Positions 455 to 60,815 of a DNA stretch of 64,000 nucleotides are shown in pieces; within the stretch, counting starts at the first letter, position 1; each line of letters begins with the position of its first letter. Both the position numbers and the translations under genes were made by a program. This stretch comes from Escherichia coli (GTDB lineage: Bacteria; Pseudomonadota; Gammaproteobacteria; Enterobacterales; Enterobacteriaceae), in NCBI RefSeq assembly GCF_003334315.1, contig NZ_QOWR01000005.1. The stretch is one strand, 5' to 3'. A model generated the notes under the pieces. It was not told the origin of the DNA, ran no database searches, and worked only from the letters and a program-made list of their open reading frames with translations.

Positions 455-1300
455 TTATTTCACTGGCTCAACCGGTAAATCTGCCCGCGCGCCCCATTCA
501 CTCCATGCGCCGTCGTACAGTTTCACGTTTGGCACATCCAGCGTCGCGAGTGCTAACAAAACCACGGCTGCCGTTACACCAGAGCCGCAGCTGACGATAA
601 TTGGTTTGTCGTAGCTGACGCCGCGACCAAAAAATATCGCATCCAGTTCATCGGTCGTTTTTAGTTCGCCTTCGCGCACCAGTTCCGTCCACGGAACATT
701 CAGTGCTCCGGGAATATGTCCGCGACGTAAACCTGGGCGAGGTTCATCAACTTCTGCGTTAAAACGTGCAGCCGGGCGGGCATCAATAATTTGCGCCGTA
801 TTTTCATGGCTTGCCAATAATACATCGGTTACTTTCACCACGGCTTCAGGATTAAACGCGGCGTTAAACTCTCCTTCCGGCAGCTCTACTGCACCTTCTT
901 CTAACAGCAGATCATCGCGCTGCCAGCCTGCAAGTCCACCCCCCAGAATCGACACTTTCTCTACACCAAAGGTGCGCAGCATCCACCATGCTCGTGGGGC
1001 TGAGAAAAGATTACCTTCGTCATAGACAATCAGGTGCTTATCCTGGTTAACGCCTAATTCACGCATCGCCACGGCGAACGTTTCCGGGCGCGGCAGCATG
1101 TGCGGAAGCGGGGAAGTGTGATCAGAAAGCGCTTCGATATCAAAAAACACTGCGCCGGGAATATGTCCATTCAGATACTCCTGAGCAACGTTACGATCCT
1201 CCTGTCCAGGCGACGCCATGCGGGCATCGATAATCTGAATTTCCGGGTCATCAATATGTTCGGCGAGCCAGTCGGCTCCTACAAACCATGTCGTGGACAT
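455..1300 (-). CDS. sseA: 3-mercaptopyruvate sulfurtransferase (tandem rhodanese)
   Basis: Translation MSTTWFVGADWLAEHIDDPEIQIIDARM... recognised as SseA; 281 aa from the internal ATG at 1298-1300 (track ORF extends upstream to 1459). Confidence 0.95.
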   Translation of the reverse strand: MSTTWFVGADWLAEHIDDPEIQIIDARMASPGQEDRNVAQEYLNGHIPGAVFFDIEALSDHTSPLPHMLPRPETFAVAMRELGVNQDKHLIVYDEGNLFSAPRAWWMLRTFGVEKVSILGGGLAGWQRDDLLLEEGAVELPEGEFNAAFNPEAVVKVTDVLLASHENTAQIIDARPAARFNAEVDEPRPGLRRGHIPGALNVPWTELVREGELKTTDELDAIFFGRGVSYDKPIIVSCGSGVTAAVVLLALATLDVPNVKLYDGAWSEWGARADLPVEPVK

Positions 1301-1506
1301 AGGCATCTCCATTTTTGCCGGGGTTAGGCTAAATTGTCGGATGTTTAGTGAAAAGCGACAAGCAAAAGAGGCTGATTTGGCTGTCTGAGCCACAATTCTC
1401 ACTAAAATTCGGATTGTATGGGCGTGATACTGAATTACATAACGTAAATTCTCACGCATAATAATTATTCGACGTTGCTAACGGGCCATTGTGGCAGGGA
1501 TGAAAA

Positions 1507-4500
1507 ATGAAAAAGTTACGCGTAGCCGCCTGCATGCTAATGCTGGCGCTGGCAGGGTGCGACAACAACGATAACGCGCCAACAGCGGTGAAAAAAGATG
1601 CGCCTTCTGAAGTTACTAAAGCGGCCTCTTCAGAAAACGCGAGTTCAGCAAAACTCTCCGCGCCAGAGCGACAAAAACTGGCACAACAGAGTGCCGGTAA
1701 GGCGCTGACATTGCTGGATCTCTCTGAAGTCCAACTTGATGGTGCAGCCACGCTGGTGCTGACGTTCTCCATCCCTCTCGACCCGGATCAGGATTTCTCA
1801 CGCGTTATTCATGTCGTCGATAAAAAAAGCGGCAAAGTGGATGGTGCCTGGGAGCTGTCAGATAATCTTAAAGAGCTGCGTTTACGCCACCTCGAACCGA
1901 AACGTGATTTGATCGTTACTATTGGCAAGGAGGTCAAAGCACTCAACAACGCAACCTTCAGTAAAGATTACGAAAAAACTATAACTACCCGCGACATCCA
2001 ACCCAGCGTCGGTTTTGCCAGCCGTGGTTCGCTGCTGCCTGGTAAAGTCGTTGAAGGGCTGCCGGTAATGGCGCTCAACGTTAATAATGTCGATGTTAAC
2101 TTCTTTCGCGTTAAGCCAGAATCTCTGCCAGCATTCATTAGCCAATGGGAATACCGCAATTCGCTGGCGAACTGGCAGTCAGACAAACTGCTGCAGATGG
2201 CGGATCTGGTCTACACCGGACGGTTTGATCTCAATCCTGCGCGTAACACCCGTGAAAAATTATTGCTGCCGCTGGGCGATATCAAACCGCTTCAGCAGGC
2301 GGGCGTGTATCTGGCTGTGATGAATCAGGCTGGACGTTACGATTACAGTAATCCCGCGACGCTGTTTACGTTAAGTGATATCGGCGTTTCAGCTCACCGT
2401 TATCACAATCGTCTGGATATCTTTACCCAAAGTCTGGAAAACGGCGCGGCCCAGCAAGGAATTGAAGTCTCTTTATTAAATGAGAAAGGGCAGACTCTGA
2501 CTCAGGCAACCAGTGACGCTCAGGGGCATGTGCAGCTGGAAAATGATAAAAACGCGGCATTACTGTTGGCGCGTAAAGACGGTCAGACAACGCTACTCGA
2601 TTTAAAACTTCCGGCGCTGGACTTAGCAGAATTTAACATTGCTGGCGCGCCAGGCTATAGCAAACAGTTTTTCATGTTTGGCCCGCGCGATCTTTATCGC
2701 CCGGGTGAAACGGTAATCCTCAATGGTTTGCTGCGTGATGCAGACGGTAAAGCGTTGCCCGATCAACCCATCAAGTTAGACGTGATTAAACCCGACGGGC
2801 AGGTTCTCAGGAGCGTCGTTAGTCAGCCGGAGAATGGCCTCTACCACTTAACCTGGCCACTCGATAGCAATGCGGCAACCGGTATGTGGCATATTCGCGC
2901 TAACACGGGCGATAACCAGTATCGGATGTGGGATTTCCACGTCGAAGATTTTATGCCAGAGCGTATGGCGCTGAATCTGACCGGTGAGAAAACCCCGCTT
3001 ACGCCGAATGATGAAGTGAAATTCTCCGTGGTGGGATACTACCTGTACGGTGCGCCTGCTAATGGTAATACTTTGCAAGGGCAACTTTTCCTGCGCCCAC
3101 TGCGTGAGGCTGTGTCAGCCTTACCTGGTTTTGAATTCGGCGATATAGCTGCCGAAAACCTTTCCCGCACGCTGGATGAAGTTCAGTTGACGCTGGATGA
3201 TAAAGGGCGCGGCGAAGTTTCTACAGAAAGCCAGTGGAAGGAAACGCATTCCCCATTACAGGTTATTTTCCAGGGTAGTTTGCTGGAATCGGGCGGTCGC
3301 CCGGTGACGCGCCGCGCTGAGCAGGCTATCTGGCCTGCCGATGCATTGCCGGGGATCCGTCCGCAGTTCGCCTCGAAATCGGTTTACGATTATCGTACTG
3401 ACAGCACGGTGAAACAGCCCATTGTTGATGAAGGCAGTAACGCCGCTTTTGACATCGTTTATAGCGATGCGCAAGGCGTGAAAAAAGCCGTGTCGGGCTT
3501 GCAGGTGCGCCTGATTCGCGAACGCCGCGATTACTACTGGAACTGGTCAGAAGATGAAGGCTGGCAGTCACAGTTTGATCAAAAAGATCTGATCGAAAAT
3601 GAACAAACTCTGGATCTGAAAGCGGACGAAACCGGCAAGGTCAGTTTTCCGGTAGAGTGGGGTGCTTATCGTCTGGAAGTCAAAGCGCCGAATGAAGCGG
3701 TCAGTAGTGTTCGTTTCTGGGCTGGCTATAGCTGGCAGGACAACAGCGACGGGAGCGGTGCCGTGCGACCCGACCGTGTCACGCTGAAACTGGATAAAGC
3801 CAGTTATCGCCCTGGCGATACCATTAAGTTGCATATTGCCGCGCCAACGGCGGGTAAAGGTTATGCGATGGTCGAGTCCAGTGAAGGGCCGCTGTGGTGG
3901 CAAGAGATTGATGTTCCGGCTCAAGGGCTGGATCTGACGATTCCGGTCGATAAAACCTGGAATCGTCATGATCTTTATTTGAGTACGCTGGTGGTGCGTC
4001 CTGGCGATAAATCTCGCTCCGCGACGCCAAAACGCGCGGTTGGTGTGTTGCATCTGCCGCTTGGTGATGAAAACCGTCGCCTCGATCTGGCGCTGGAAAC
4101 ACCAGCAAAAATGCGTCCCAATCAACCATTAACCGTGAAAATTAAAGCCAGCACTAAAAATGGCGAGAAGCCTAAACAGGTGAATGTGCTGGTGTCTGCC
4201 GTTGATAGTGGTGTGCTGAATATTACTGACTACGTCACGCCAGATCCGTGGCAGGCGTTCTTTGGTCAGAAACGCTATGGCGCAGACATTTACGATATTT
4301 ACGGTCAGGTTATTGAAGGTCAGGGGCGTCTGGCAGCTCTGCGTTTCGGTGGCGATGGTGATGAGCTGAAACGTGGTGGTAAACCGCCGGTCAATCACGT
4401 CAATATTGTCGCGCAGCAGGCGCTGCCGGTAACGCTCAACGAACAGGGCGAAGGCTCGGTTACACTGCCGATTGGCGATTTTAACGGTGAATTGCGCGTC

Positions 4501-6468
4501 ATGGCGCAAGCCTGGACGGCAGATGACTTCGGTAGCAACGAAAGTAAAGTGATAGTTGCCGCACCGGTGATTGCTGAACTGAACATGCCGCGCTTTATGG
4601 CGAGTGGCGATACCTCGCGTCTGACGCTGGATATCACTAATCTTACCGATAAACCGCAAAAACTGAACGTTGCCCTGACCGCCAGTGGTTTGCTTGAACT
4701 GGTCAGCGATTCACCCGCAGCCGTTGAATTAGCGCCAGGTGTGCGTACTACGCTGTTTATCCCGGTGCGAGCATTGCCGGGTTATGGCGATGGAGAAATT
4801 CAGGTCACCATTAGCGGGTTAGCGTTACCGGGTGAAACCGTTGCCGATCAGCATAAGCAGTGGAAAATCGGCGTCCGTCCGGCGTTCCCGGCACAAACGG
4901 TTAATTACGGTACGGCGTTACAGCCTGGTGAGACATGGGCGATTCCGGCGGATGGATTGCAAAACTTCTCGCCTGTTACGCTGGAAGGGCAATTGTTGTT
5001 GAGCGGCAAACCACCGCTGAACATCGCACGTTATATCAAAGAGTTAAAAGCGTATCCGTACGGCTGTCTTGAGCAAACCGCCAGCGGCCTGTTTCCGTCA
5101 CTTTATACCAACGCAGCCCAACTGCAGGCGTTGGGCATCAAAGGCGACAGTGATGAGAAACGCCGTGCATCGGTCGATATCGGCATTTCCCGTTTGCTGC
5201 AAATGCAACGTGATAACGGCGGCTTTGCGCTGTGGGATAAAAACGGTGACGAAGAGTACTGGCTGACGGCTTACGTGATGGATTTCCTGGTCCGCGCAGG
5301 CGAACAGGGTTACAGCGTGCCGACAGACGCCATTAACCGGGGTAATGAGCGTCTGCTGCGCTATTTACAAGATCCGGGCATGATGTCGATCCCGTACGCG
5401 GATAATCTCAAAGCCAGTAAATTCGCCGTTCAGTCTTACGCTGCGCTGGTGCTGGCCCGTCAGCAAAAAGCACCACTGGGTGCGCTGCGTGAAATCTGGG
5501 AGCATCGTGCAGATGCCGCTTCTGGTTTACCGCTGCTGCAACTTGGCGTTGCGCTGAAAACCATGGGTGATGCAACGCGTGGTGAAGAAGCGATTGTGCT
5601 GGCGCTGAAAACGCCGCGTAATAGTGATGAGCGGATATGGCTGGGTGATTACGGTAGTCCACTGCGCGACAACGCGTTAATGCTCTCCTTGCTGGAAGAA
5701 AATAAACTGCTACCCGATGAGCAGTACACTTTGCTGAACACACTTTCGCAGCAGGCGTTTGGTGAACGCTGGCTATCGACGCAGGAAAGTAACGCGTTGT
5801 TCCTGGCTGCCCGTACGATTCAGGATTTACCGGGTAAATGGCAGGCGCAAACCTCTTTCTCAGCTGAGCCGCTGACAGGCGAGAAAACGCTAAACAGCAA
5901 TCTGAATAGCGATCAACTTGCCACCTTGCAGGTGAGAAACAGTGGCGATCAGCCGTTATGGTTGCGTATGGATGCCAGCGGTTATCCGCAATCCGCACCT
6001 TTACCGGCGAACAATGTGCTGCAAATCGAGCGTCATATTCTTGGTACTGATGGTAAGAGCAAATCGCTGGACTCGTTACGTAGCGGCGATCTGGTGCTGG
6101 TCTGGTTGCAGGTAAAAGCCAGTAACAGCGTGCCGGATGCGTTAGTCGTGGATCTGCTGCCTGCGGGTCTGGAACTGGAAAGCCAGAATCTGGCGAACGG
6201 TAGCGCCAGCCTGGAGCAAAGTGGTGGCGAAGTGCAGAACTTACTGAACCAGATGCAGCAGGCGAGCATTAAGCACATTGAGTTCCGTGACGATCGCTTT
6301 GTGGCGGCGGTTGCCGTTGATGAATACCAACCGGTAACGCTGGTGTATCTGGCGCGGGCGGTGACGCCGGGAACGTATCAGGTACCGCAACCGATGGTGG
6401 AATCAATGTATGTTCCCCAATGGCGGGCGACCGGCGCGGCTGAAGATCTGCTGATTGTCAGACCGTAA
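1507..6468 (+). CDS. yfhM: Alpha-2-macroglobulin family lipoprotein
   Basis: 1653 aa; lipoprotein signal MKKLRVAACMLMLALAGC; thioester motif CLEQ encoded at 5065-5076. Confidence 0.95.
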   Translation: MKKLRVAACMLMLALAGCDNNDNAPTAVKKDAPSEVTKAASSENASSAKLSAPERQKLAQQSAGKALTLLDLSEVQLDGAATLVLTFSIPLDPDQDFSRVIHVVDKKSGKVDGAWELSDNLKELRLRHLEPKRDLIVTIGKEVKALNNATFSKDYEKTITTRDIQPSVGFASRGSLLPGKVVEGLPVMALNVNNVDVNFFRVKPESLPAFISQWEYRNSLANWQSDKLLQMADLVYTGRFDLNPARNTREKLLLPLGDIKPLQQAGVYLAVMNQAGRYDYSNPATLFTLSDIGVSAHRYHNRLDIFTQSLENGAAQQGIEVSLLNEKGQTLTQATSDAQGHVQLENDKNAALLLARKDGQTTLLDLKLPALDLAEFNIAGAPGYSKQFFMFGPRDLYRPGETVILNGLLRDADGKALPDQPIKLDVIKPDGQVLRSVVSQPENGLYHLTWPLDSNAATGMWHIRANTGDNQYRMWDFHVEDFMPERMALNLTGEKTPLTPNDEVKFSVVGYYLYGAPANGNTLQGQLFLRPLREAVSALPGFEFGDIAAENLSRTLDEVQLTLDDKGRGEVSTESQWKETHSPLQVIFQGSLLESGGRPVTRRAEQAIWPADALPGIRPQFASKSVYDYRTDSTVKQPIVDEGSNAAFDIVYSDAQGVKKAVSGLQVRLIRERRDYYWNWSEDEGWQSQFDQKDLIENEQTLDLKADETGKVSFPVEWGAYRLEVKAPNEAVSSVRFWAGYSWQDNSDGSGAVRPDRVTLKLDKASYRPGDTIKLHIAAPTAGKGYAMVESSEGPLWWQEIDVPAQGLDLTIPVDKTWNRHDLYLSTLVVRPGDKSRSATPKRAVGVLHLPLGDENRRLDLALETPAKMRPNQPLTVKIKASTKNGEKPKQVNVLVSAVDSGVLNITDYVTPDPWQAFFGQKRYGADIYDIYGQVIEGQGRLAALRFGGDGDELKRGGKPPVNHVNIVAQQALPVTLNEQGEGSVTLPIGDFNGELRVMAQAWTADDFGSNESKVIVAAPVIAELNMPRFMASGDTSRLTLDITNLTDKPQKLNVALTASGLLELVSDSPAAVELAPGVRTTLFIPVRALPGYGDGEIQVTISGLALPGETVADQHKQWKIGVRPAFPAQTVNYGTALQPGETWAIPADGLQNFSPVTLEGQLLLSGKPPLNIARYIKELKAYPYGCLEQTASGLFPSLYTNAAQLQALGIKGDSDEKRRASVDIGISRLLQMQRDNGGFALWDKNGDEEYWLTAYVMDFLVRAGEQGYSVPTDAINRGNERLLRYLQDPGMMSIPYADNLKASKFAVQSYAALVLARQQKAPLGALREIWEHRADAASGLPLLQLGVALKTMGDATRGEEAIVLALKTPRNSDERIWLGDYGSPLRDNALMLSLLEENKLLPDEQYTLLNTLSQQAFGERWLSTQESNALFLAARTIQDLPGKWQAQTSFSAEPLTGEKTLNSNLNSDQLATLQVRNSGDQPLWLRMDASGYPQSAPLPANNVLQIERHILGTDGKSKSLDSLRSGDLVLVWLQVKASNSVPDALVVDLLPAGLELESQNLANGSASLEQSGGEVQNLLNQMQQASIKHIEFRDDRFVAAVAVDEYQPVTLVYLARAVTPGTYQVPQPMVESMYVPQWRATGAAEDLLIVRP

Positions 6469-8781
6469 ATGCCTCGCTTGTTAACCAAACGCGGCTGCTG
6501 GATAACGTTGGCAGCCGCGCCCTTTCTCCTTTTTCTTGCAGCGTGGGGAGCAGATAAACTCTGGCCTCTACCGCTGCATGAAGTCAATCCCGCACGAGTG
6601 GTCGTGGCGCAGGATGGTACGCCGCTCTGGCGCTTCGCCGATGCTGACGGCATCTGGCGTTATCCGGTAACAATCGAAGATGTTTCTCCACGTTACCTTG
6701 AAGCGCTGATCAATTATGAAGATCGCTGGTTCTGGAAGCATCCGGGGGTGAATCCATTCTCGGTGGCGCGCGCAGCATGGCAAGATCTCACTTCGGGACG
6801 GGTTATTTCCGGTGGCAGCACGCTCACTATGCAGGTTGCTCGTCTGCTTGATCCTCACCCCAAAACATTTGGCGGCAAAATTCGCCAGCTCTGGCGCGCG
6901 TTGCAACTGGAATGGCATCTGTCTAAGCGTGAAATTCTGACCTTGTATCTTAACCGCGCTCCGTTTGGCGGTACGTTGCAGGGGATCGGTGCGGCAAGTT
7001 GGGCTTATCTCGGAAAATCGCCTGCGAATTTAAGCTATTCCGAGGCGGCAATGCTGGCGGTTTTGCCGCAAGCGCCCAGCCGTCTTCGCCCGGATCGTTG
7101 GCCGGAGCGTGCCGAAGCCGCGCGTAATAAAGTGCTCGAACGGATGGCCGTGCAAGGTGTGTGGTCCCGTGAGCAGGTAAAAGAGTCAAGGGAAGAACCC
7201 ATCTGGCTGGCCCCCCGACAAATGCCGCAACTGGCACCGCTGTTTTCGCGCATGATGCTCGGTAAAAGCAAAAGCGACAAAATCACTACTACGTTGGATG
7301 CCGGTCTTCAACGACGTCTGGAAGAACTGGCGCAAAACTGGAAAGGGCGGTTGCCACCGCGCAGCTCACTGGCGATGATCGTGGTTGATCATACCGATAT
7401 GCGTGTTCGCGGCTGGGTGGGATCGGTTGATCTCAACGATGATTCACGCTTTGGTCATGTTGATATGGTCAATTCGATCCGATCGCCAGGATCAGTGCTC
7501 AAACCGTTTGTTTATGGTCTGGCGCTGGATGAAGGCTTGATCCACCCGGCATCACTGCTGCAAGACGTCCCCCGGCGCACCGGTGATTATCGACCAGGTA
7601 ACTTTGATAGCGGTTTTCATGGCCCGATCAGCATGAGCGAGGCGCTGGTGCGCTCGCTGAACTTACCTGCTGTGCAGGTGCTGGAAGCCTATGGACCGAA
7701 ACGGTTTGCGGCAAAGTTACGCAATGTTGGATTGCCGTTATATTTGCCCAACGGTGCTGCGCCGAATCTTTCACTCATTCTCGGCGGCGCTGGTGCAAAA
7801 CTGGAAGATATGGCGGCAGCGTATACCGCGTTTGCTCGCCACGGCAAGGCAGGCAAATTGCGCTTACAGCCTGACGATCCGCTGCTTGAACGGCCTTTAA
7901 TGTCGTCGGGGGCGGCGTGGATCATTCGCCGGATTATGGCTGATGAAGCGCAACCCTTGCCGGATAGTGCCTTGCCGCGCGTCGCCCCACTGGCATGGAA
8001 AACGGGCACCAGCTATGGCTATCGTGACGCCTGGGCGATTGGGGTTAACGCTCGCTATGTCATTGGGATCTGGACTGGCAGACCGGACGGCACGCCCGTT
8101 GTTGGTCAGTTTGGCTTTGCCAGTGCCGTACCATTGTTGAATCAGGTCAATAATATCTTACTGTCGCGCAGTGCGAATCTGCCGGAAGACCCGCGCCCGA
8201 ACTCAGTCACTCGTGGCGTTATCTGCTGGCCGGGCGGACAGTCTTTGCCGGAAGGTGACGGTAACTGTCGCCGCCGCCTGGCAACCTGGCTGCTGGACGG
8301 GAGTCAGCCGCCAACTCTATTACTGCCGGAGCAGGAAGGCATTAATGGCATTCGTTTCCCCATCTGGCTGGATGAAAATGGCAAACGTGTTGCCGCTGAT
8401 TGCCCGCAAGCGCGACAAGAAATGATAAATGTCTGGCCGCTACCGCTGGAACCCTGGCTGCCCGCATCAGAACGTCGCGCTGTGCGCTTACCACCGGCCT
8501 CGACAAGTTGCCCGCCATACGGTCACGATGCCCAGCTCCCGCTGCAGCTGACAGGCGTTCGCGATGGCGCGATTATTAAACGTTTACCGGGCGCAGCGGA
8601 AGCGACTTTGCCGTTGCAATCAAGTGGAGGGGCAGGTGAACGCTGGTGGTTTCTGAATGGCGAACCGTTAACTGAACGCGGGCGCAACGTGACCCTGCAT
8701 TTGACGGATAAAGGTGATTATCAATTGCTGGTGATGGATGACGTGGGGCAAATCGCGACAGTGAAATTTGTCATGCAATAG
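6469..8781 (+). CDS. pbpC: Penicillin-binding protein 1C (glycosyltransferase/transpeptidase)
   Basis: 770 aa; the ATG abuts the yfhM TAA (TAAATG), as in the K-12 yfhM-pbpC operon. Confidence 0.95.
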   Translation: MPRLLTKRGCWITLAAAPFLLFLAAWGADKLWPLPLHEVNPARVVVAQDGTPLWRFADADGIWRYPVTIEDVSPRYLEALINYEDRWFWKHPGVNPFSVARAAWQDLTSGRVISGGSTLTMQVARLLDPHPKTFGGKIRQLWRALQLEWHLSKREILTLYLNRAPFGGTLQGIGAASWAYLGKSPANLSYSEAAMLAVLPQAPSRLRPDRWPERAEAARNKVLERMAVQGVWSREQVKESREEPIWLAPRQMPQLAPLFSRMMLGKSKSDKITTTLDAGLQRRLEELAQNWKGRLPPRSSLAMIVVDHTDMRVRGWVGSVDLNDDSRFGHVDMVNSIRSPGSVLKPFVYGLALDEGLIHPASLLQDVPRRTGDYRPGNFDSGFHGPISMSEALVRSLNLPAVQVLEAYGPKRFAAKLRNVGLPLYLPNGAAPNLSLILGGAGAKLEDMAAAYTAFARHGKAGKLRLQPDDPLLERPLMSSGAAWIIRRIMADEAQPLPDSALPRVAPLAWKTGTSYGYRDAWAIGVNARYVIGIWTGRPDGTPVVGQFGFASAVPLLNQVNNILLSRSANLPEDPRPNSVTRGVICWPGGQSLPEGDGNCRRRLATWLLDGSQPPTLLLPEQEGINGIRFPIWLDENGKRVAADCPQARQEMINVWPLPLEPWLPASERRAVRLPPASTSCPPYGHDAQLPLQLTGVRDGAIIKRLPGAAEATLPLQSSGGAGERWWFLNGEPLTERGRNVTLHLTDKGDYQLLVMDDVGQIATVKFVMQ

Positions 8782-8929
8782 TCTGTTTTGTCCCTGATTG
8801 TTGCTAAAACTCATTTTATTTTAAAAAAATGTTACCTTCATCAATAGTCAACGGCCCTGTTGCTCATTATAATCCGCGCCATCTCGTACGCTGGTACAGA
8901 CAACAACAGAACAATTTACAGAGGTAAAA

Positions 8930-9361
8930 ATGGCTATTGAACGTACTTTTTCCATCATCAAACCGAACGCGGTAGCAAAAAACGTCATTGGTAATATCTT
9001 TGCGCGCTTTGAAGCTGCAGGGTTCAAAATTGTTGGCACCAAAATGCTGCACCTGACCGTTGAACAGGCACGTGGCTTTTATGCTGAACACGATGGAAAA
9101 CCGTTCTTTGATGGTCTGGTTGAATTCATGACCTCTGGCCCGATCGTGGTTTCCGTGCTGGAAGGTGAAAACGCCGTTCAGCGTCACCGCGATCTGCTGG
9201 GCGCGACCAATCCGGCAAACGCACTGGCTGGTACTCTGCGCGCTGATTACGCTGACAGCCTGACCGAAAACGGTACCCACGGTTCTGATTCCGTCGAATC
9301 TGCCGCTCGCGAAATCGCTTATTTCTTTGGCGAAGGCGAAGTGTGCCCGCGCACCCGTTAA
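8930..9361 (+). CDS. ndk: Nucleoside diphosphate kinase
   Basis: 143 aa, [32 protein letters not shown]...; SD upstream. Confidence 0.97.
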
Positions 9362-9423
9362 TAATTTCGTAAATGCCGCGTGCAAACGTGGCATCCGTGC
9401 GCCAGAATTTGTACAATGCAGCG

Positions 9424-9464
9424 CCCCCGGACGAGCAGCCGCTCACCGGGGCGTTTCTTTTTTC
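9424..9464 (+). terminator. Putative intrinsic terminator/attenuator between ndk and rlmN
   Basis: CCCCGG...CCGGGG stem followed by cgTTTCTTTTTT. Confidence 0.5.
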
Positions 9465-9510
9465 AACCCTCCAGGGGCCATAACGTGTAATAACGAGGCC
9501 GGAATAGCAT

Positions 9511-10665
9511 ATGTCTGAACAATTAGTCACACCTGAAAACGTCACCACGAAAGATGGAAAAATCAACCTGCTGGATCTCAACCGTCAGCAGATGCGGGAG
9601 TTTTTTAAAGATTTAGGTGAAAAACCCTTCCGCGCCGATCAGGTGATGAAGTGGATGTATCACTATTGCTGCGACAACTTTGATGAGATGACCGACATCA
9701 ACAAAGTGTTGCGCGGCAAACTGAAAGAGGTGGCGGAAATCCGCGCACCGGAAGTGGTTGAAGAACAGCGTTCATCCGACGGCACCATTAAATGGGCGAT
9801 CGCCGTTGGCGATCAGCGCGTCGAAACGGTGTATATCCCGGAAGACGACCGTGCCACGCTCTGCGTCTCTTCGCAGGTGGGGTGTGCGCTGGAGTGTAAA
9901 TTCTGTTCCACCGCCCAGCAGGGCTTTAACCGCAACCTGCGGGTATCGGAAATTATTGGCCAGGTGTGGCGTGCGGCGAAAATCGTCGGCGCAGCAAAAG
10001 TCACCGGTCAGCGCCCAATCACTAACGTAGTGATGATGGGCATGGGCGAGCCGCTGCTCAACCTGAACAACGTCGTTCCGGCGATGGAAATCATGCTTGA
10101 TGATTTCGGTTTTGGCCTGTCTAAACGTCGCGTCACGCTTTCTACTTCCGGTGTAGTTCCGGCGCTGGATAAACTGGGCGATATGATCGACGTTGCACTG
10201 GCAATTTCCCTGCACGCGCCGAACGACGAAATTCGTGACGAAATTGTGCCGATCAACAAAAAGTACAATATCGAAACGTTCCTTGCTGCGGTGCGCCGTT
10301 ATCTGGAGAAATCCAACGCCAATCAAGGCCGAGTCACTATTGAATACGTGATGCTTGACCACGTTAACGACGGCACTGAACACGCTCACCAACTGGCGGA
10401 ACTGCTGAAAGATACGCCGTGTAAGATCAACCTGATCCCGTGGAACCCGTTCCCGGGTGCGCCGTATGGACGCAGCTCGAACAGCCGTATCGACCGTTTC
10501 TCAAAAGTGCTGATGAGCTACGGTTTCACCACTATTGTGCGTAAAACGCGTGGTGATGATATCGATGCTGCCTGTGGTCAGTTGGCGGGCGATGTTATCG
10601 ACCGTACGAAACGTACCCTGCGTAAACGGATGCAGGGTGAAGCCATCGACATTAAAGCGGTCTGA
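9511..10665 (+). CDS. rlmN: 23S rRNA m2A2503 / tRNA m2A37 methyltransferase (radical SAM)
   Basis: 384 aa; radical-SAM Cys motif CALECKFC; [23 protein letters not shown]... Confidence 0.95.
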
Positions 10666-11989: not shown

Positions 11990-13108
11990 ATGCATAACCA
12001 GGCTCCAATTCAACGTAGAAAATCAACACGTATTTACGTTGGGAATGTGCCGATTGGCGATGGTGCTCCCATCGCCGTACAGTCCATGACCAATACGCGT
12101 ACGACAGACGTCGAAGCAACGGTCAATCAAATCAAGGCGCTGGAACGCGTTGGCGCTGATATCGTCCGTGTCTCCGTACCGACGATGGACGCGGCAGAAG
12201 CGTTCAAACTCATCAAACAGCAGGTTAACGTGCCGCTGGTGGCTGACATCCACTTCGACTATCGCATTGCACTGAAAGTAGCGGAATACGGCGTCGATTG
12301 TCTGCGTATTAACCCTGGCAATATCGGTAATGAAGAGCGTATTCGCATGGTAGTTGACTGTGCGCGCGATAAAAACATTCCGATCCGCATTGGCGTTAAC
12401 GCCGGATCGCTGGAAAAAGATCTGCAAGAAAAGTATGGCGAACCGACGCCGCAGGCGTTGCTGGAATCCGCCATGCGCCATGTTGATCATCTCGATCGCC
12501 TGAACTTCGATCAGTTCAAAGTCAGCGTGAAAGCGTCTGACGTCTTCCTCGCTGTTGAGTCTTATCGTTTGCTGGCAAAACAAATCGATCAGCCGCTGCA
12601 TCTGGGGATCACCGAAGCGGGTGGCGCGCGCAGCGGGGCAGTAAAATCCGCCATTGGTTTAGGTCTGCTGCTGTCTGAAGGCATCGGCGACACGCTGCGC
12701 GTATCACTGGCGGCCGATCCGGTCGAAGAGATCAAAGTCGGTTTCGATATTTTGAAATCGCTGCGTATCCGTTCGCGAGGTATCAACTTCATCGCCTGTC
12801 CGACCTGTTCGCGTCAGGAGTTTGATGTTATCGGTACGGTTAACGCGCTGGAGCAACGCCTGGAAGATATCATCACTCCGATGGACGTTTCGATTATCGG
12901 CTGCGTGGTGAATGGCCCAGGTGAGGCGCTGGTTTCTACACTCGGCGTCACCGGCGGCAACAAGAAAAGCGGCCTCTATGAAGATGGCGTGCGCAAAGAC
13001 CGTCTGGACAACAACGATATGATCGACCAGCTGGAAGCACGCATTCGTGCGAAAGCCAGTCAGCTGGACGAAGCGCGTCGAATTGACGTTCAGCAGGTCG
13101 AAAAATAA
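11990..13108 (+). CDS. ispG: 4-hydroxy-3-methylbut-2-enyl diphosphate synthase
   Basis: 372 aa, [36 protein letters not shown]... Confidence 0.96.
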
Positions 13109-13218
13109 TAACGTGATGGGAAGCGCCTCGCTTCCCGTGTATGATTGAACCCGCATGGCTCCCCAAACATTGAGGGAAGCGTTGAGGGTTCATTTTTATA
13201 TTCAGAAAGAGAATAAAC
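13109..13218 (+). ncRNA. sroE: Candidate 3'UTR-derived sRNA SroE (ispG-hisS intergenic)
   Basis: K-12 has a small RNA processed from the gcpE(ispG) 3' end in this interval (from memory); hairpin GGGAAGCGCCTCGCTTCCC at about 13119-13137. Ends not determinable from sequence. Confidence 0.35.
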
Positions 13219-21258: not shown

Positions 21259-22836
21259 ATGACGGAAAACATTCATAAGCATCGCATCCTCATTCTGGAC
21301 TTCGGTTCTCAGTACACTCAACTGGTTGCGCGCCGCGTGCGTGAGCTGGGTGTTTACTGCGAACTGTGGGCGTGGGATGTGACAGAAGCACAAATTCGTG
21401 ACTTCAATCCAAGCGGCATTATTCTTTCCGGCGGCCCGGAAAGTACTACTGAAGAAAACAGTCCGCGTGCGCCGCAGTATGTCTTTGAAGCAGGCGTACC
21501 GGTATTCGGCGTTTGCTATGGCATGCAGACCATGGCAATGCAGTTGGGCGGTCACGTTGAAGCCTCTAACGAACGTGAATTTGGCTACGCGCAGGTTGAA
21601 GTCGTAAACGACAGCGCACTGGTTCGCGGTATCGAAGATGCGCTGACCGCAGACGGTAAACCGCTGCTCGATGTCTGGATGAGCCACGGCGATAAAGTTA
21701 CCGCTATTCCGTCCGACTTCATCACCGTAGCCAGCACCGAAAGCTGCCCGTTTGCCATTATGGCTAACGAAGAAAAACGCTTCTATGGCGTACAGTTCCA
21801 CCCGGAAGTGACTCACACCCGCCAGGGTATGCGCATGCTGGAGCGTTTTGTGCGTGATATCTGCCAGTGTGAAGCCCTGTGGACGCCAGCGAAAATTATC
21901 GACGATGCTGTAGCTCGCATCCGCGAGCAGGTAGGCGACGATAAAGTCATCCTCGGCCTCTCTGGTGGTGTGGATTCCTCCGTAACCGCAATGCTGCTGC
22001 ACCGCGCTATCGGTAAAAACCTGACTTGCGTATTCGTCGACAACGGCCTGCTGCGCCTCAACGAAGCAGAGCAGGTTCTGGATATGTTTGGCGATCACTT
22101 TGGTCTTAACATTGTTCACGTACCGGCAGAAGATCGCTTCCTGTCAGCGCTGGCTGGCGAAAACGATCCGGAAGCAAAACGTAAAATCATCGGTCGCGTT
22201 TTCGTTGAAGTATTCGATGAAGAAGCGCTGAAACTGGAAGACGTGAAGTGGCTGGCGCAGGGCACCATCTACCCTGACGTTATCGAATCTGCGGCGTCTG
22301 CAACCGGTAAAGCACACGTCATCAAATCTCACCACAACGTGGGCGGCCTGCCGAAAGAGATGAAGATGGGCCTGGTTGAACCGCTGAAAGAGCTGTTCAA
22401 AGACGAAGTGCGTAAGATTGGTCTGGAGCTGGGCCTGCCGTACGACATGCTGTACCGTCACCCGTTCCCGGGACCAGGCCTTGGCGTTCGTGTTCTGGGT
22501 GAAGTGAAGAAAGAGTACTGTGACCTGCTGCGCCGTGCTGACGCCATCTTCATTGAAGAACTGCGTAAAGCGGACCTGTACGACAAAGTCAGCCAGGCGT
22601 TCACTGTGTTCCTGCCGGTACGTTCCGTTGGCGTAATGGGCGATGGTCGTAAGTATGACTGGGTTGTCTCTCTGCGTGCTGTCGAAACCATCGACTTTAT
22701 GACCGCACACTGGGCGCATCTGCCGTACGATTTCCTCGGTCGCGTTTCCAACCGCATTATCAATGAAGTGAACGGTATTTCCCGCGTGGTGTATGACATC
22801 AGCGGCAAGCCGCCAGCTACCATTGAGTGGGAATGA
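21259..22836 (+). CDS. guaA: GMP synthase (glutamine-hydrolysing)
   Basis: 525 aa, [39 protein letters not shown]... Confidence 0.97.
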
Positions 22837-22859
22837 TTTGACCCTGCACTATGAATGAA

Positions 22860-60734: not shown

Positions 60735-60815
60735 GGCCTGATAAGACGCGTGAGCGTCGCATCAGGCATCGTTCACCATTGCCGGATGCGGCGTGAACGC
60801 CTTATCCGGCCTACG
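60735..60815. repeat. BIME: two REP elements
   Basis: GGCCTGATAAGACGCGTGAGCGTCGCATCAGGC and TGCCGGATGCGGCGTGAACGCCTTATCCGGCCTACG. Confidence 0.7.

Follow-up and report, generated by a model that had tools for sequence, protein, structure and literature searches.

Bacterial α2-macroglobulins (A2Ms) come in two described types: type I proteins combine a CxEQ thioester motif with a lipobox and are encoded next to pbpC, as opposed to type II proteins such as Pseudomonas aeruginosa MagD and Escherichia coli YfaS (PMC3735191, PMC3328433, PMC5764988). The two types share an architecture of multiple macroglobulin (MG) domains and a periplasmic, inner-membrane-associated location, but type II A2Ms lack both the CxEQ thioester and the lipobox Cys, and are encoded in a six-gene mag-type operon rather than beside pbpC (PMC3735191, PMC5764988). 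Here we analysed a 64,000-nucleotide (nt) stretch of E. coli contig NZ_QOWR01000005.1 (the window), which carries yfhM, encoding the A2M YfhM (also known as ECAM), directly followed by pbpC, encoding the penicillin-binding protein (PBP) PBP1C. An initial annotation, made from the sequence of the window, had called this pair a described periplasmic defence module, and rightly so: the pairing of a type I A2M with pbpC is already in the literature (PMC3328433, PMC3735191, PMC5764988), and among bacterial modules of a type I A2M with PBP1C, yfhM-pbpC is the type example. The operon as such is not new: it belongs to the E. coli core genome, structures have been solved, and a defence hypothesis, still unproven, has been published. 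Our additions are modest: a survey of the yfhM-pbpC junction across related genomes and an mRNA stem-loop, conserved at the very start of the pbpC coding sequence, which could serve as an experimental handle on the balance between ECAM and PBP1C and which bears on whether the two proteins act together.

The closest described system is K-12 ECAM (PDB 4RTD, 4ZIQ and 5A42), the product of the same gene, with the same length of 1653 aa and identical lipobox, bait region, YPYGCLEQ, RDDR and ESMY sequences. K-12 ECAM forms a thioester and traps proteases covalently after cleavage of its bait region (PMC4498604, PMC3328433). In the native state the thioester is shielded by the RDDR and ESMY motifs; once the bait is cut, the segment set free and the thioester domain compete for the C-terminal MG domain, a swing of the thioester domain by ~36 Å follows, and the exposed Cys1187-Gln1190 thioester reacts with the protease (PMC4498604). 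Salmonella enterica Sa-A2M (PDB 4U48, 4U4J) also belongs to the type I thioester A2Ms, shares the lock residues and gives a full-length match of 3048 bits; its gene, too, is directly followed by pbpC, with a TAAATG junction seen in S. enterica subsp. arizonae. It differs in sequence (~82% identity according to PMC4498604) and in a numbering shifted by 8-9 residues. More distantly, human α2-macroglobulin, complement C3 and CD109 share with YfhM the MG domains, the bait region and the CxEQ thioester domain, and YfhM gives weak but significant sequence matches to human A2M-type proteins (E = 3e-5 to 3e-4). However, identity is ~12% (PMC4498604), and a soluble tetramer contrasts with the monomeric, lipid-anchored ECAM and its extra N-terminal bacterial MG domains. 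As for PBP1C, it shares with PBP1A and PBP1B the class A layout of a GT51 glycosyltransferase and a transpeptidase domain, but scores under the PBP1A and PBP1B family cut-offs and carries an additional BiPBP_C domain. That the protease trap is partnered with cell-wall repair, with PBP1C repairing the peptidoglycan after an envelope breach, is a published hypothesis drawn from gene adjacency (PMC4498604, PMC5764988); in the searchable literature we found nothing that tests it.

The locus in the window conforms to this picture throughout. Several complete E. coli genomes match a 7.7 kb query around the operon at 100% identity; matches to it occur in 5426 of 5426, always on the chromosome, and a 7.3 kb operon query finds a single place in each of the same 5426 genomes. 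RefSeq labels the two open reading frames (ORFs) yfhM (alpha2-macroglobulin) and pbpC (peptidoglycan glycosyltransferase PbpC) and annotates a divergent sseA upstream and ndk downstream. Both ORFs lie at the coordinates that the initial annotation had assigned to them, and both are intact, with a full Pfam architecture, all motifs present and 99% (YfhM) and 100% (PbpC) identity to K-12. Every defining feature of a type I A2M and of PBP1C that can be looked for in a sequence is present. The best overall explanation, to which we assign a probability of about 0.9, is therefore that this is an intact E. coli core-genome yfhM-pbpC operon; in full, that explanation takes in the trap mechanism, the coupling of the two genes and a role for the stem-loop, each of which is graded on its own below. 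The features on which it draws exceed what chance would produce, because the locus is present in 5426/5426 genomes, the C, E and Q of the thioester motif are invariant and a junction of 0-1 nt recurs in 29 loci.

Turning to the proteins, the thioester motif and the lipoprotein signal with which the initial annotation had credited YfhM both hold up. CLEQ is encoded in frame (TGT CTT GAG CAA, 5065-5076) as the end of YPYGCLEQ (residues 1183-1190), and the TED Pfam match spans residues 1176-1282. The N-terminus MKKLRVAACMLMLALAGC-DNN has two Lys and one Arg, a hydrophobic core and a lipobox L-A-G-C with Cys18 and Asp at +2 (LAGC-DNN, residues 15-21). As a sequence pattern, Cys followed by Asp is kept in 75 of 77 relatives with a complete N-terminus. 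In E. coli, Lol sorting keeps lipoproteins with Asp at +2 in the inner membrane, and YfhM should be retained there by the same residue, which fits the location published for ECAM. The two exceptions, a Pantoea metagenome-assembled genome (MAG; L046) and Budvicia aquatica (L048), have kept CLEQ without the lipobox Cys-Asp; their signal peptides resemble ordinary signal-peptidase-I substrates, which suggests soluble periplasmic variants. The thioester-site columns, RDDR and ESMY are all invariant in alignment A1, which holds 14 sequences reaching down to 44% identity. Of the 79 related loci with sequence at this site, 77 have CLEQ, one CAEQ and one CSEQ.

A domain search, which the initial annotation had proposed as a check, recovered A2M, thioester and MG domains in YfhM and both the transglycosylase and the transpeptidase in PbpC. 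For YfhM the Pfam domains are bMG1, A2M_bMG2, bMG3, MG2, bMG5, bMG6, A2M_BRD, A2M, TED_complement, CUB_A2MG and bMG10 (E = 3e-51 to 3e-8), and the protein matches end to end the E. coli structures 4RTD, 4ZIQ and 5A42 and the Salmonella structure 4U48. An NCBIfam search returned no family for YfhM, which is uninformative, its identity being settled by Pfam and PDB. Compared with K-12, 1637 of 1653 residues are identical (99%); the 16 substitutions are scattered over surface positions of the MG and TED domains, with none in the lipobox, the bait region or the thioester pocket, and residues 915-965, which include the bait region, have the K-12 sequence. Since both Cys residues are present and pbpC lies downstream, YfhM is a type I A2M. 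As such, it would be exported, lipid-anchored through Cys18 and act as a monomeric trap for proteases that reach the periplasm: a protease cutting the bait region (~923-942) would release a segment that pushes the C-terminal MG domain off the thioester domain; the thioester between Cys1187 and Gln1190, now exposed, would link covalently to the protease.

PbpC is identical to its K-12 counterpart at all 770 of 770 residues. It scores 1568.6 bits against the NCBIfam PbpC equivalog NF008414 (cut-off 1121) and 919.9 against TIGR02073 (cut-off 494). The Pfam Transgly match covers residues 61-226 (E = 4.9e-52) and the Transpeptidase match residues 306-519 (E = 7.7e-12); the SxxK, SxN and KTG motifs of the latter are present, which does not imply activity. 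A PDB search with PbpC found no solved PBP1C structure, the best match being PBP1A at 189 bits. PbpC is a class A PBP anchored in the inner membrane; its glycosyltransferase domain looks active and its transpeptidase domain is atypical.

How the second gene is translated is less straightforward. As the initial annotation had noted, pbpC starts on the base after the yfhM stop (TAA 6466-6468, ATG 6469-6471). The best duplex that the 20 nt upstream of pbpC form with the 3′ end of 16S rRNA has an energy of +0.4 kcal/mol, compared with -6.0 for yfhM and -5.6 to -8.8 kcal/mol for most neighbouring genes; 95% of the in-frame positions within the yfhM and pbpC ORFs give a stronger duplex. We surveyed this junction in 80 species-level genome loci retrieved with an alignment of the C-terminal third of A2M. 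A PbpC homologue is encoded next on the same strand in 79 of the 80. The spacer is 0 nt (TAAATG) in 11 loci of Escherichia, Citrobacter and Salmonella and 1 nt in 18 loci of Enterobacter, Kluyvera, Kosakonia, Lelliottia, Pluralibacter, Phytobacter and others, and none of these 29 tight-junction (0-1 nt) Enterobacteriaceae loci has a Shine-Dalgarno (SD)-like tetramer 3-12 nt upstream of the pbpC start. Spacers of 3-12 nt occur in Cedecea, Mangrovibacter and a Pantoea MAG, of 28-82 nt in Serratia, Yersinia, Photorhabdus, Xenorhabdus, Proteus and some Pseudomonas, of 116-240 nt in Budvicia, Moellerella, Morganella and one Providencia, and of more than 400 nt in most Pseudomonas; overall, the other Enterobacterales and Pseudomonas keep the gene order with 28-900 nt between the genes. 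In at least 14 Pseudomonas loci, the A2M gene and pbpC are separated by a conserved and very hydrophobic ORF of 97 codons (MQVESFFEWLGQALG...IIWLVLGLWLLSWIIH) on the opposite strand, and these pseudomonads therefore have no simple bicistronic operon. Thus, while nearly all of the Enterobacterales and Pseudomonas loci have A2M followed by pbpC, direct abutment of the two genes is lineage-specific, and together with the intervening pseudomonad gene this means that an operon with translational coupling cannot be assumed for the module in general.

For E. coli itself, the initial annotation had read the abutting stop and start codons as consistent with translational coupling. We likewise regard termination-reinitiation coupling as the likeliest route to pbpC translation, with somewhat better than even odds, because pbpC has neither its own ribosome-binding site nor any gap to the yfhM stop. 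The two genes would be co-transcribed, and ribosomes that finish yfhM would reinitiate on pbpC; coupling is not, however, a defining property of the module. The junction could instead reflect mere genome compaction, with pbpC translated through independent, inefficient initiation at an SD-less AUG. Initiation without an SD does occur in E. coli, the spacing is not kept beyond the Enterobacteriaceae, and Hafnia and the long-spacer taxa seemingly initiate pbpC alone, with GAGG or a GGAG-like sequence upstream in some loci. What makes compaction rather doubtful is that the 0-1 nt spacing persists in 29 loci from more than 10 genera despite freely varying flanking codons, and that the anti-SD complementarity of pbpC lies at the very bottom of the local distribution. 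In addition, folding predicts that the E. coli start codon is buried in a stable local structure, with the end of yfhM as its 5′ arm, which favours opening by an upstream ribosome; as a caveat, this start-codon-enclosing hairpin is absent from the consensus fold described next.

The 100 nt around the junction fold with a predicted energy of -47.2 kcal/mol (z = -4.7; as stable a fold in 0 of 200 shuffles), and the fold consists of two hairpins. The first (6421-6483), which encloses the stop and start codons, is long and imperfect; it is predicted in E. coli and E. albertii and is missing from the 29-taxon consensus fold, so that we treat it as an Escherichia-specific prediction only. The second, at 6490-6519, pairs CGCGGCUGCUGG with UUGGCAGCCGCG within codons 8-17 of pbpC and had gone unmentioned in the initial annotation. 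At its position a hairpin is predicted in 29 of the 29 tight-junction loci, in register in 28 of them, even though the sequences are quite different.

Covariation was assessed on an unbiased MAFFT alignment of these loci (A2), in which the helix corresponds to columns 73-85 paired with 90-102 (13 pairs). Of the helix cells, 93.1% are paired, compared with 76.6% in column shuffles; 9 of the 13 pairs have changes on both sides, affecting 58 cells where 21 are expected, and the covariation score of 0.462 (0.167 expected) was reached by 0 of 500 shuffles. RNAalifold returned the helix as the only consensus structure (-20.05 kcal/mol), with compensatory change in 8 of 11 pairs. Single pairs show 4-5 of the standard pair types (columns 76/99, for instance, occur as GC, UA, AU, CG and UG). 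Covariation can also be followed at the level of codons, where Cys UGC paired with Ala GCA in one sequence corresponds to Arg CGC paired with Ala GCG in another. The encoded peptides differ accordingly, from RGCWITLAAA in E. coli to RSRWLWLAGA in Enterobacter, and since they differ while the pairing is kept, selection would appear to act on the RNA and not on the peptide. Furthermore, 78 of 375 helix cells are G.U, two G.U pairs are nearly invariant, and pairing stands at 93% on the sense strand but only ~72% on the antisense strand; the conserved G.U pairs therefore place the structure on the sense strand.

Might the palindrome nevertheless be a by-product of coding constraints or of shared ancestry? 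It does lie inside a coding sequence, its arms contain the Trp (UGG), Leu (CUG) and Ala (GCN) codons of conserved amino acids, and phylogenetic relatedness inflates statistics that are based on shuffling. However, when the 3′ partner is slid by 1-3 columns, which preserves relatedness, pairing collapses to 32-59%. Likewise, when 492 windows of 50 nt were compared along a second, 2.5 kb alignment of these loci, those covering the helix ranked first, and no other came close: their consensus energy is -12.2, the next best -8.1 and the median -1.1. Pairing kept across differing peptides, with 4-5 pair types per pair, is also not what a coding by-product would leave behind, and unrelated sequences fold a hairpin at the same place in Cedecea, Hafnia and an Enterobacteriaceae MAG (L085). 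We consequently regard a by-product as very improbable, and conclude, with high confidence for a claim made from comparative sequence analysis, that the stem-loop at 6490-6519 is a selected RNA structure. A dispersed element of the repetitive extragenic palindrome (REP) kind was ruled out, as the operon query matches one place per genome and the hairpin is thus single copy. Rfam 15 gave no match to region 6300-6700 on either strand up to E = 10, and none at the gathering score, and we found no earlier description of a conserved pbpC hairpin.

The distance of the hairpin from the start codon is nearly fixed: it begins at +22 from the ATG in 28 of the 29 aligned loci, and the intervening 18 nt, variable in sequence, contain no insertions or deletions. 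Embedded hairpins of unrelated sequence are found at +23 in Cedecea neteri (with an 18-bp stem), at +25 in the L085 MAG (10-nt spacer) and at +19 in Hafnia alvei (13 bp), the last combined with a GAGG SD and a 13-nt spacer. Taxa with spacers of 28-240 nt have no recurrent hairpin at the pbpC 5′ end; 21 loci with such spacers carry a strong hairpin within the spacer, 3-13 nt past the A2M stop, and one further locus (L086) is alike. In Proteus, Providencia and Photorhabdus the spacer hairpin is followed by a T-run, like an intrinsic terminator, and in Proteus and Providencia it has the make-up of one, a GC-rich stem-loop directly followed by a U-tract; in Yersinia and Serratia there is no T-run. 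The common denominator is a stable stem-loop soon after the A2M ORF, which in the absence of a spacer occupies the closest position that spares the pbpC initiation footprint.

Because a stem-loop follows 22 nt after the junction, simple coupling is probably not all that governs the expression of the pair; the hairpin probably tunes the expression of ECAM relative to PBP1C. We give even odds to a more specific proposal: that the hairpin is an undescribed cis-regulatory RNA element of the A2M-pbpC module which sets the ECAM:PBP1C ratio, is conserved in Enterobacterales at one of two places (pbpC +19 to +25, or in the spacer after the A2M stop), and has shaped the N-terminal peptide sequence of PBP1C. 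Candidate routes are the formation or protection of a yfhM-only 3′ end, pausing of RNA polymerase, and gating of reinitiating ribosomes. By limiting the pbpC message or its translation after yfhM, the hairpin would leave ECAM in excess over PBP1C. In kind, this is a familiar element, an intra-operon regulatory or stabilising stem-loop; what sets it apart is only that it covaries clearly and sits within the first codons of the next gene.

One way in which it could act is as a transcript boundary, i.e. as a partial terminator, a pause site or a barrier to 3′-exonucleases that yields a stable yfhM-only mRNA. Most transcripts would then lack full-length pbpC, and mRNA abundance, rather than coupling, would set the protein ratio. 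Such a boundary would account for the placement of the hairpin in both groups of taxa, 3-13 nt past the A2M stop in the 21 spacer loci (and in L086), some of them with a T-run, and at +19 to +25 in the tight-junction taxa, which is as near to the stop as it can be without entering the initiation footprint. There is also a precedent in E. coli, where the 3′ ends of Rho-terminated transcripts are found at stable stem-loops that lack a U-tract and have Rho utilisation (rut) sites just downstream of them (Dar & Sorek 2018, PMC6061677). As in those protective stem-loops, and as in intrinsic terminators and intra-operon stabilisers, a stable GC-rich stem-loop stands directly behind an ORF; with the Rho-associated class it further shares the lack of a canonical U-tract and, in E. 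coli, a stretch richer in C than in G after the stem (78 nt, 97th percentile of the operon). It differs from that class in lying inside the coding sequence of the next gene and in that the other 25 loci, all non-Escherichia, do not share its C>G bias; moreover, the members of the class have mapped 3′ ends, while the present hairpin is known from sequence.

We rejected two specific versions of the boundary. An intrinsic terminator at 6490-6519 has the stem (-20.8 kcal/mol), but the tail that follows, CCCUUUCU..., has no proximal U-run, a U-tract is neither canonical nor conserved across the tails of the other loci, and the consensus scan calls no intrinsic terminator here. A rut-like C>G stretch as a conserved signature fails in the same manner, being present in E. 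coli and not conserved elsewhere. The searchable supplements of an E. coli 3′-end study list no 3′ end in pbpC or yfhM (PMC7815308), and a literature search for pbpC together with Rho-dependent termination returned nothing relevant. On balance, the transcript boundary is a tentative proposal that we place somewhat short of even odds.

Alternatively, the stem-loop might act on translation, either as a barrier at the leading edge of the initiation footprint, keeping ribosomes close to the AUG after termination and thereby favouring reinitiation, or as a throttle on early pbpC elongation. The near-fixed distance to the start codon (+22 in 28/29, and +23, +25 and +19 elsewhere) and the conserved G.U pairs, which put the structure on the sense strand, are what such a role would predict. 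On the other hand, the long-spacer taxa have their hairpin upstream of the start codon, the Hafnia hairpin coexists with an SD, and we know of no established bacterial precedent for a hairpin barrier that promotes reinitiation or throttles early elongation. A translational role is thus rather unlikely, at least as the whole explanation, although the two mechanisms are not mutually exclusive.

Several observations weigh against the overall explanation, an intact operon whose products and expression work as outlined above. The tight junction is confined to the Enterobacteriaceae and so is not a property of the A2M-pbpC module as a whole. In Hafnia, the hairpin is accompanied by an SD and therefore cannot simply be a device for SD-less reinitiation. 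E. coli NCTC9100 keeps yfhM but has neither pbpC nor ndk. Finally, while we infer a functional partnership between ECAM and PBP1C, gene adjacency is the sole basis for pairing the trap with repair.

Coordinates of the features discussed here and in the following paragraphs are collected in Table 1.

Table 1. Features of the yfhM-pbpC locus (window coordinates unless another locus is named)
Feature	Position	Strand	Details
sseA/yfhM divergent intergenic region	1301-1506		One weak sigma-70-like site and the yfhM SD-like CAGGGA
yfhM, ECAM, type I bacterial alpha-2-macroglobulin	1507-6468	+	ATG start, 1653 aa
Lipoprotein signal peptide with lipobox LAGC	1507-1560	+	Cys18 at 1558-1560; N-terminus MKKLRVAACMLMLALAGC-DNN
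Bait region, disordered, Arg923-Leu942 (ECAM numbering)	4273-4332	+	Range from PMC4498604
Thioester site YPYGCLEQ	5053-5076	+	Protective Tyr1183 and Tyr1185; Cys1187, Gln1190; residue roles from PMC4498604
C-terminal MG domain motifs RDDR and ESMY	6286-6411	+	RDDR at 6286-6297 (residue 1594); ESMY at 6400-6411 (residue 1632)
yfhM stop TAA abutting pbpC start ATG	6466-6471	+	0-nt spacer; no SD upstream
pbpC, PBP1C, class A penicillin-binding protein	6469-8781	+	ATG start, 770 aa
Conserved mRNA stem-loop CGCGGCUGCUGG-AUAACG-UUGGCAGCCGCG	6490-6519	+	12 bp, -20.8 kcal/mol, +22 to +51 from the pbpC ATG
N-terminal membrane anchor of PbpC			Residues 11-26 (WITLAAAPFLLFLAAW)
GT51 motif 1 EDRWFWKHPG	6718-6747	+	Putative catalytic Glu84; motif 2 GGSTLT at residues 115-120
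Transpeptidase motifs	7492-8007	+	S342-V-L-K (7492-7503), S396-L-N (7654-7662), K511-T-G (7999-8007)
BiPBP_C C-terminal domain, hallmark of PBP1C-type proteins	8527-8769	+	Residues 687-767, E = 4.8e-17
Opposite-strand ORF between the A2M gene and pbpC in Pseudomonas	6617-6910 (in L073)	-	Loci L050, L056-L058, L065, L071-L075, L078, L080-L082

A consensus scan of 1200-9600 for promoters and terminators found no more sites than in shuffled sequence. Upstream of yfhM, the sigma-70-like site ATTACA-17-CATAAT (1434-1462) is a consensus match only, one of 7 sites found compared with 6.1 expected by chance, and the same scan called neither a terminator between the two genes nor an internal promoter over the final 500 nt of yfhM. 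Genomic SELEX (systematic evolution of ligands by exponential enrichment) lists a sigma-E holoenzyme peak inside the 5′ part of yfhM (PMC5493296); by coordinate conversion, its K-12 position (2649866 of U00096.2) falls ~440 nt into yfhM, or at ~1950 of the window. A sigma-E promoter was considered and rejected, as GAAC-N17-21-TCNAA has no match near yfhM and occurs 7 times window-wide compared with 10.4 expected.

Within the species, the operon and its surroundings show some variation. On K-12 (U00096.3), position x of the window lies at 2,647,325 - (x - 6469) of the minus strand. Relative to K-12, yfhM has 53 nucleotide differences (36 synonymous and 16 non-synonymous codons), while ~6200-9500, with pbpC, ndk and the spacer between them, has none and the differences resume in rlmN; this points to a recombination mosaic with a tract boundary near the yfhM 3′ end. 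In NCTC9100, a clean deletion has removed pbpC from codon 7 onwards and almost all of ndk (8975-8990 of locus L088, where ~6488 of the window is joined to ~9352) and has left yfhM intact; there is an ACC microhomology at the joint, and the left breakpoint lies 2 nt before the hairpin. ECOCN22 carries an IS5 insertion in yfhM.

None of the genomes that match the 7.7 kb query at 100% contains the window over its full length. An IS1 element is inserted downstream of sseA, and positions 1-203 are its terminal part (ending ...AAATCAGTAAGTTGGCAGCATCACC); they are unmatched in the near-identical strain W5-6, and the IS1-sseA junction occurs in only 10 of 5426 complete E. coli genomes, the best of them 97% identical. 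Between guaA and yfgI the window has an empty site (22824-22839), at which W5-6 carries an integrase/RepA/Trb island of ~18 kb with genes for a tyrosine recombinase, RepA, TraJ/TrbJ/TrbL, an 'ABC-three component system', an AAA ATPase, ComF-family proteins and an S1 peptidase. Elsewhere in the window, Rfam matches at the gathering score are the small RNA sroE (13108-13199, + strand, 113 bits), between ispG and hisS, and naRNA4, of the REP/BIME type, on both strands at 60735-60811.

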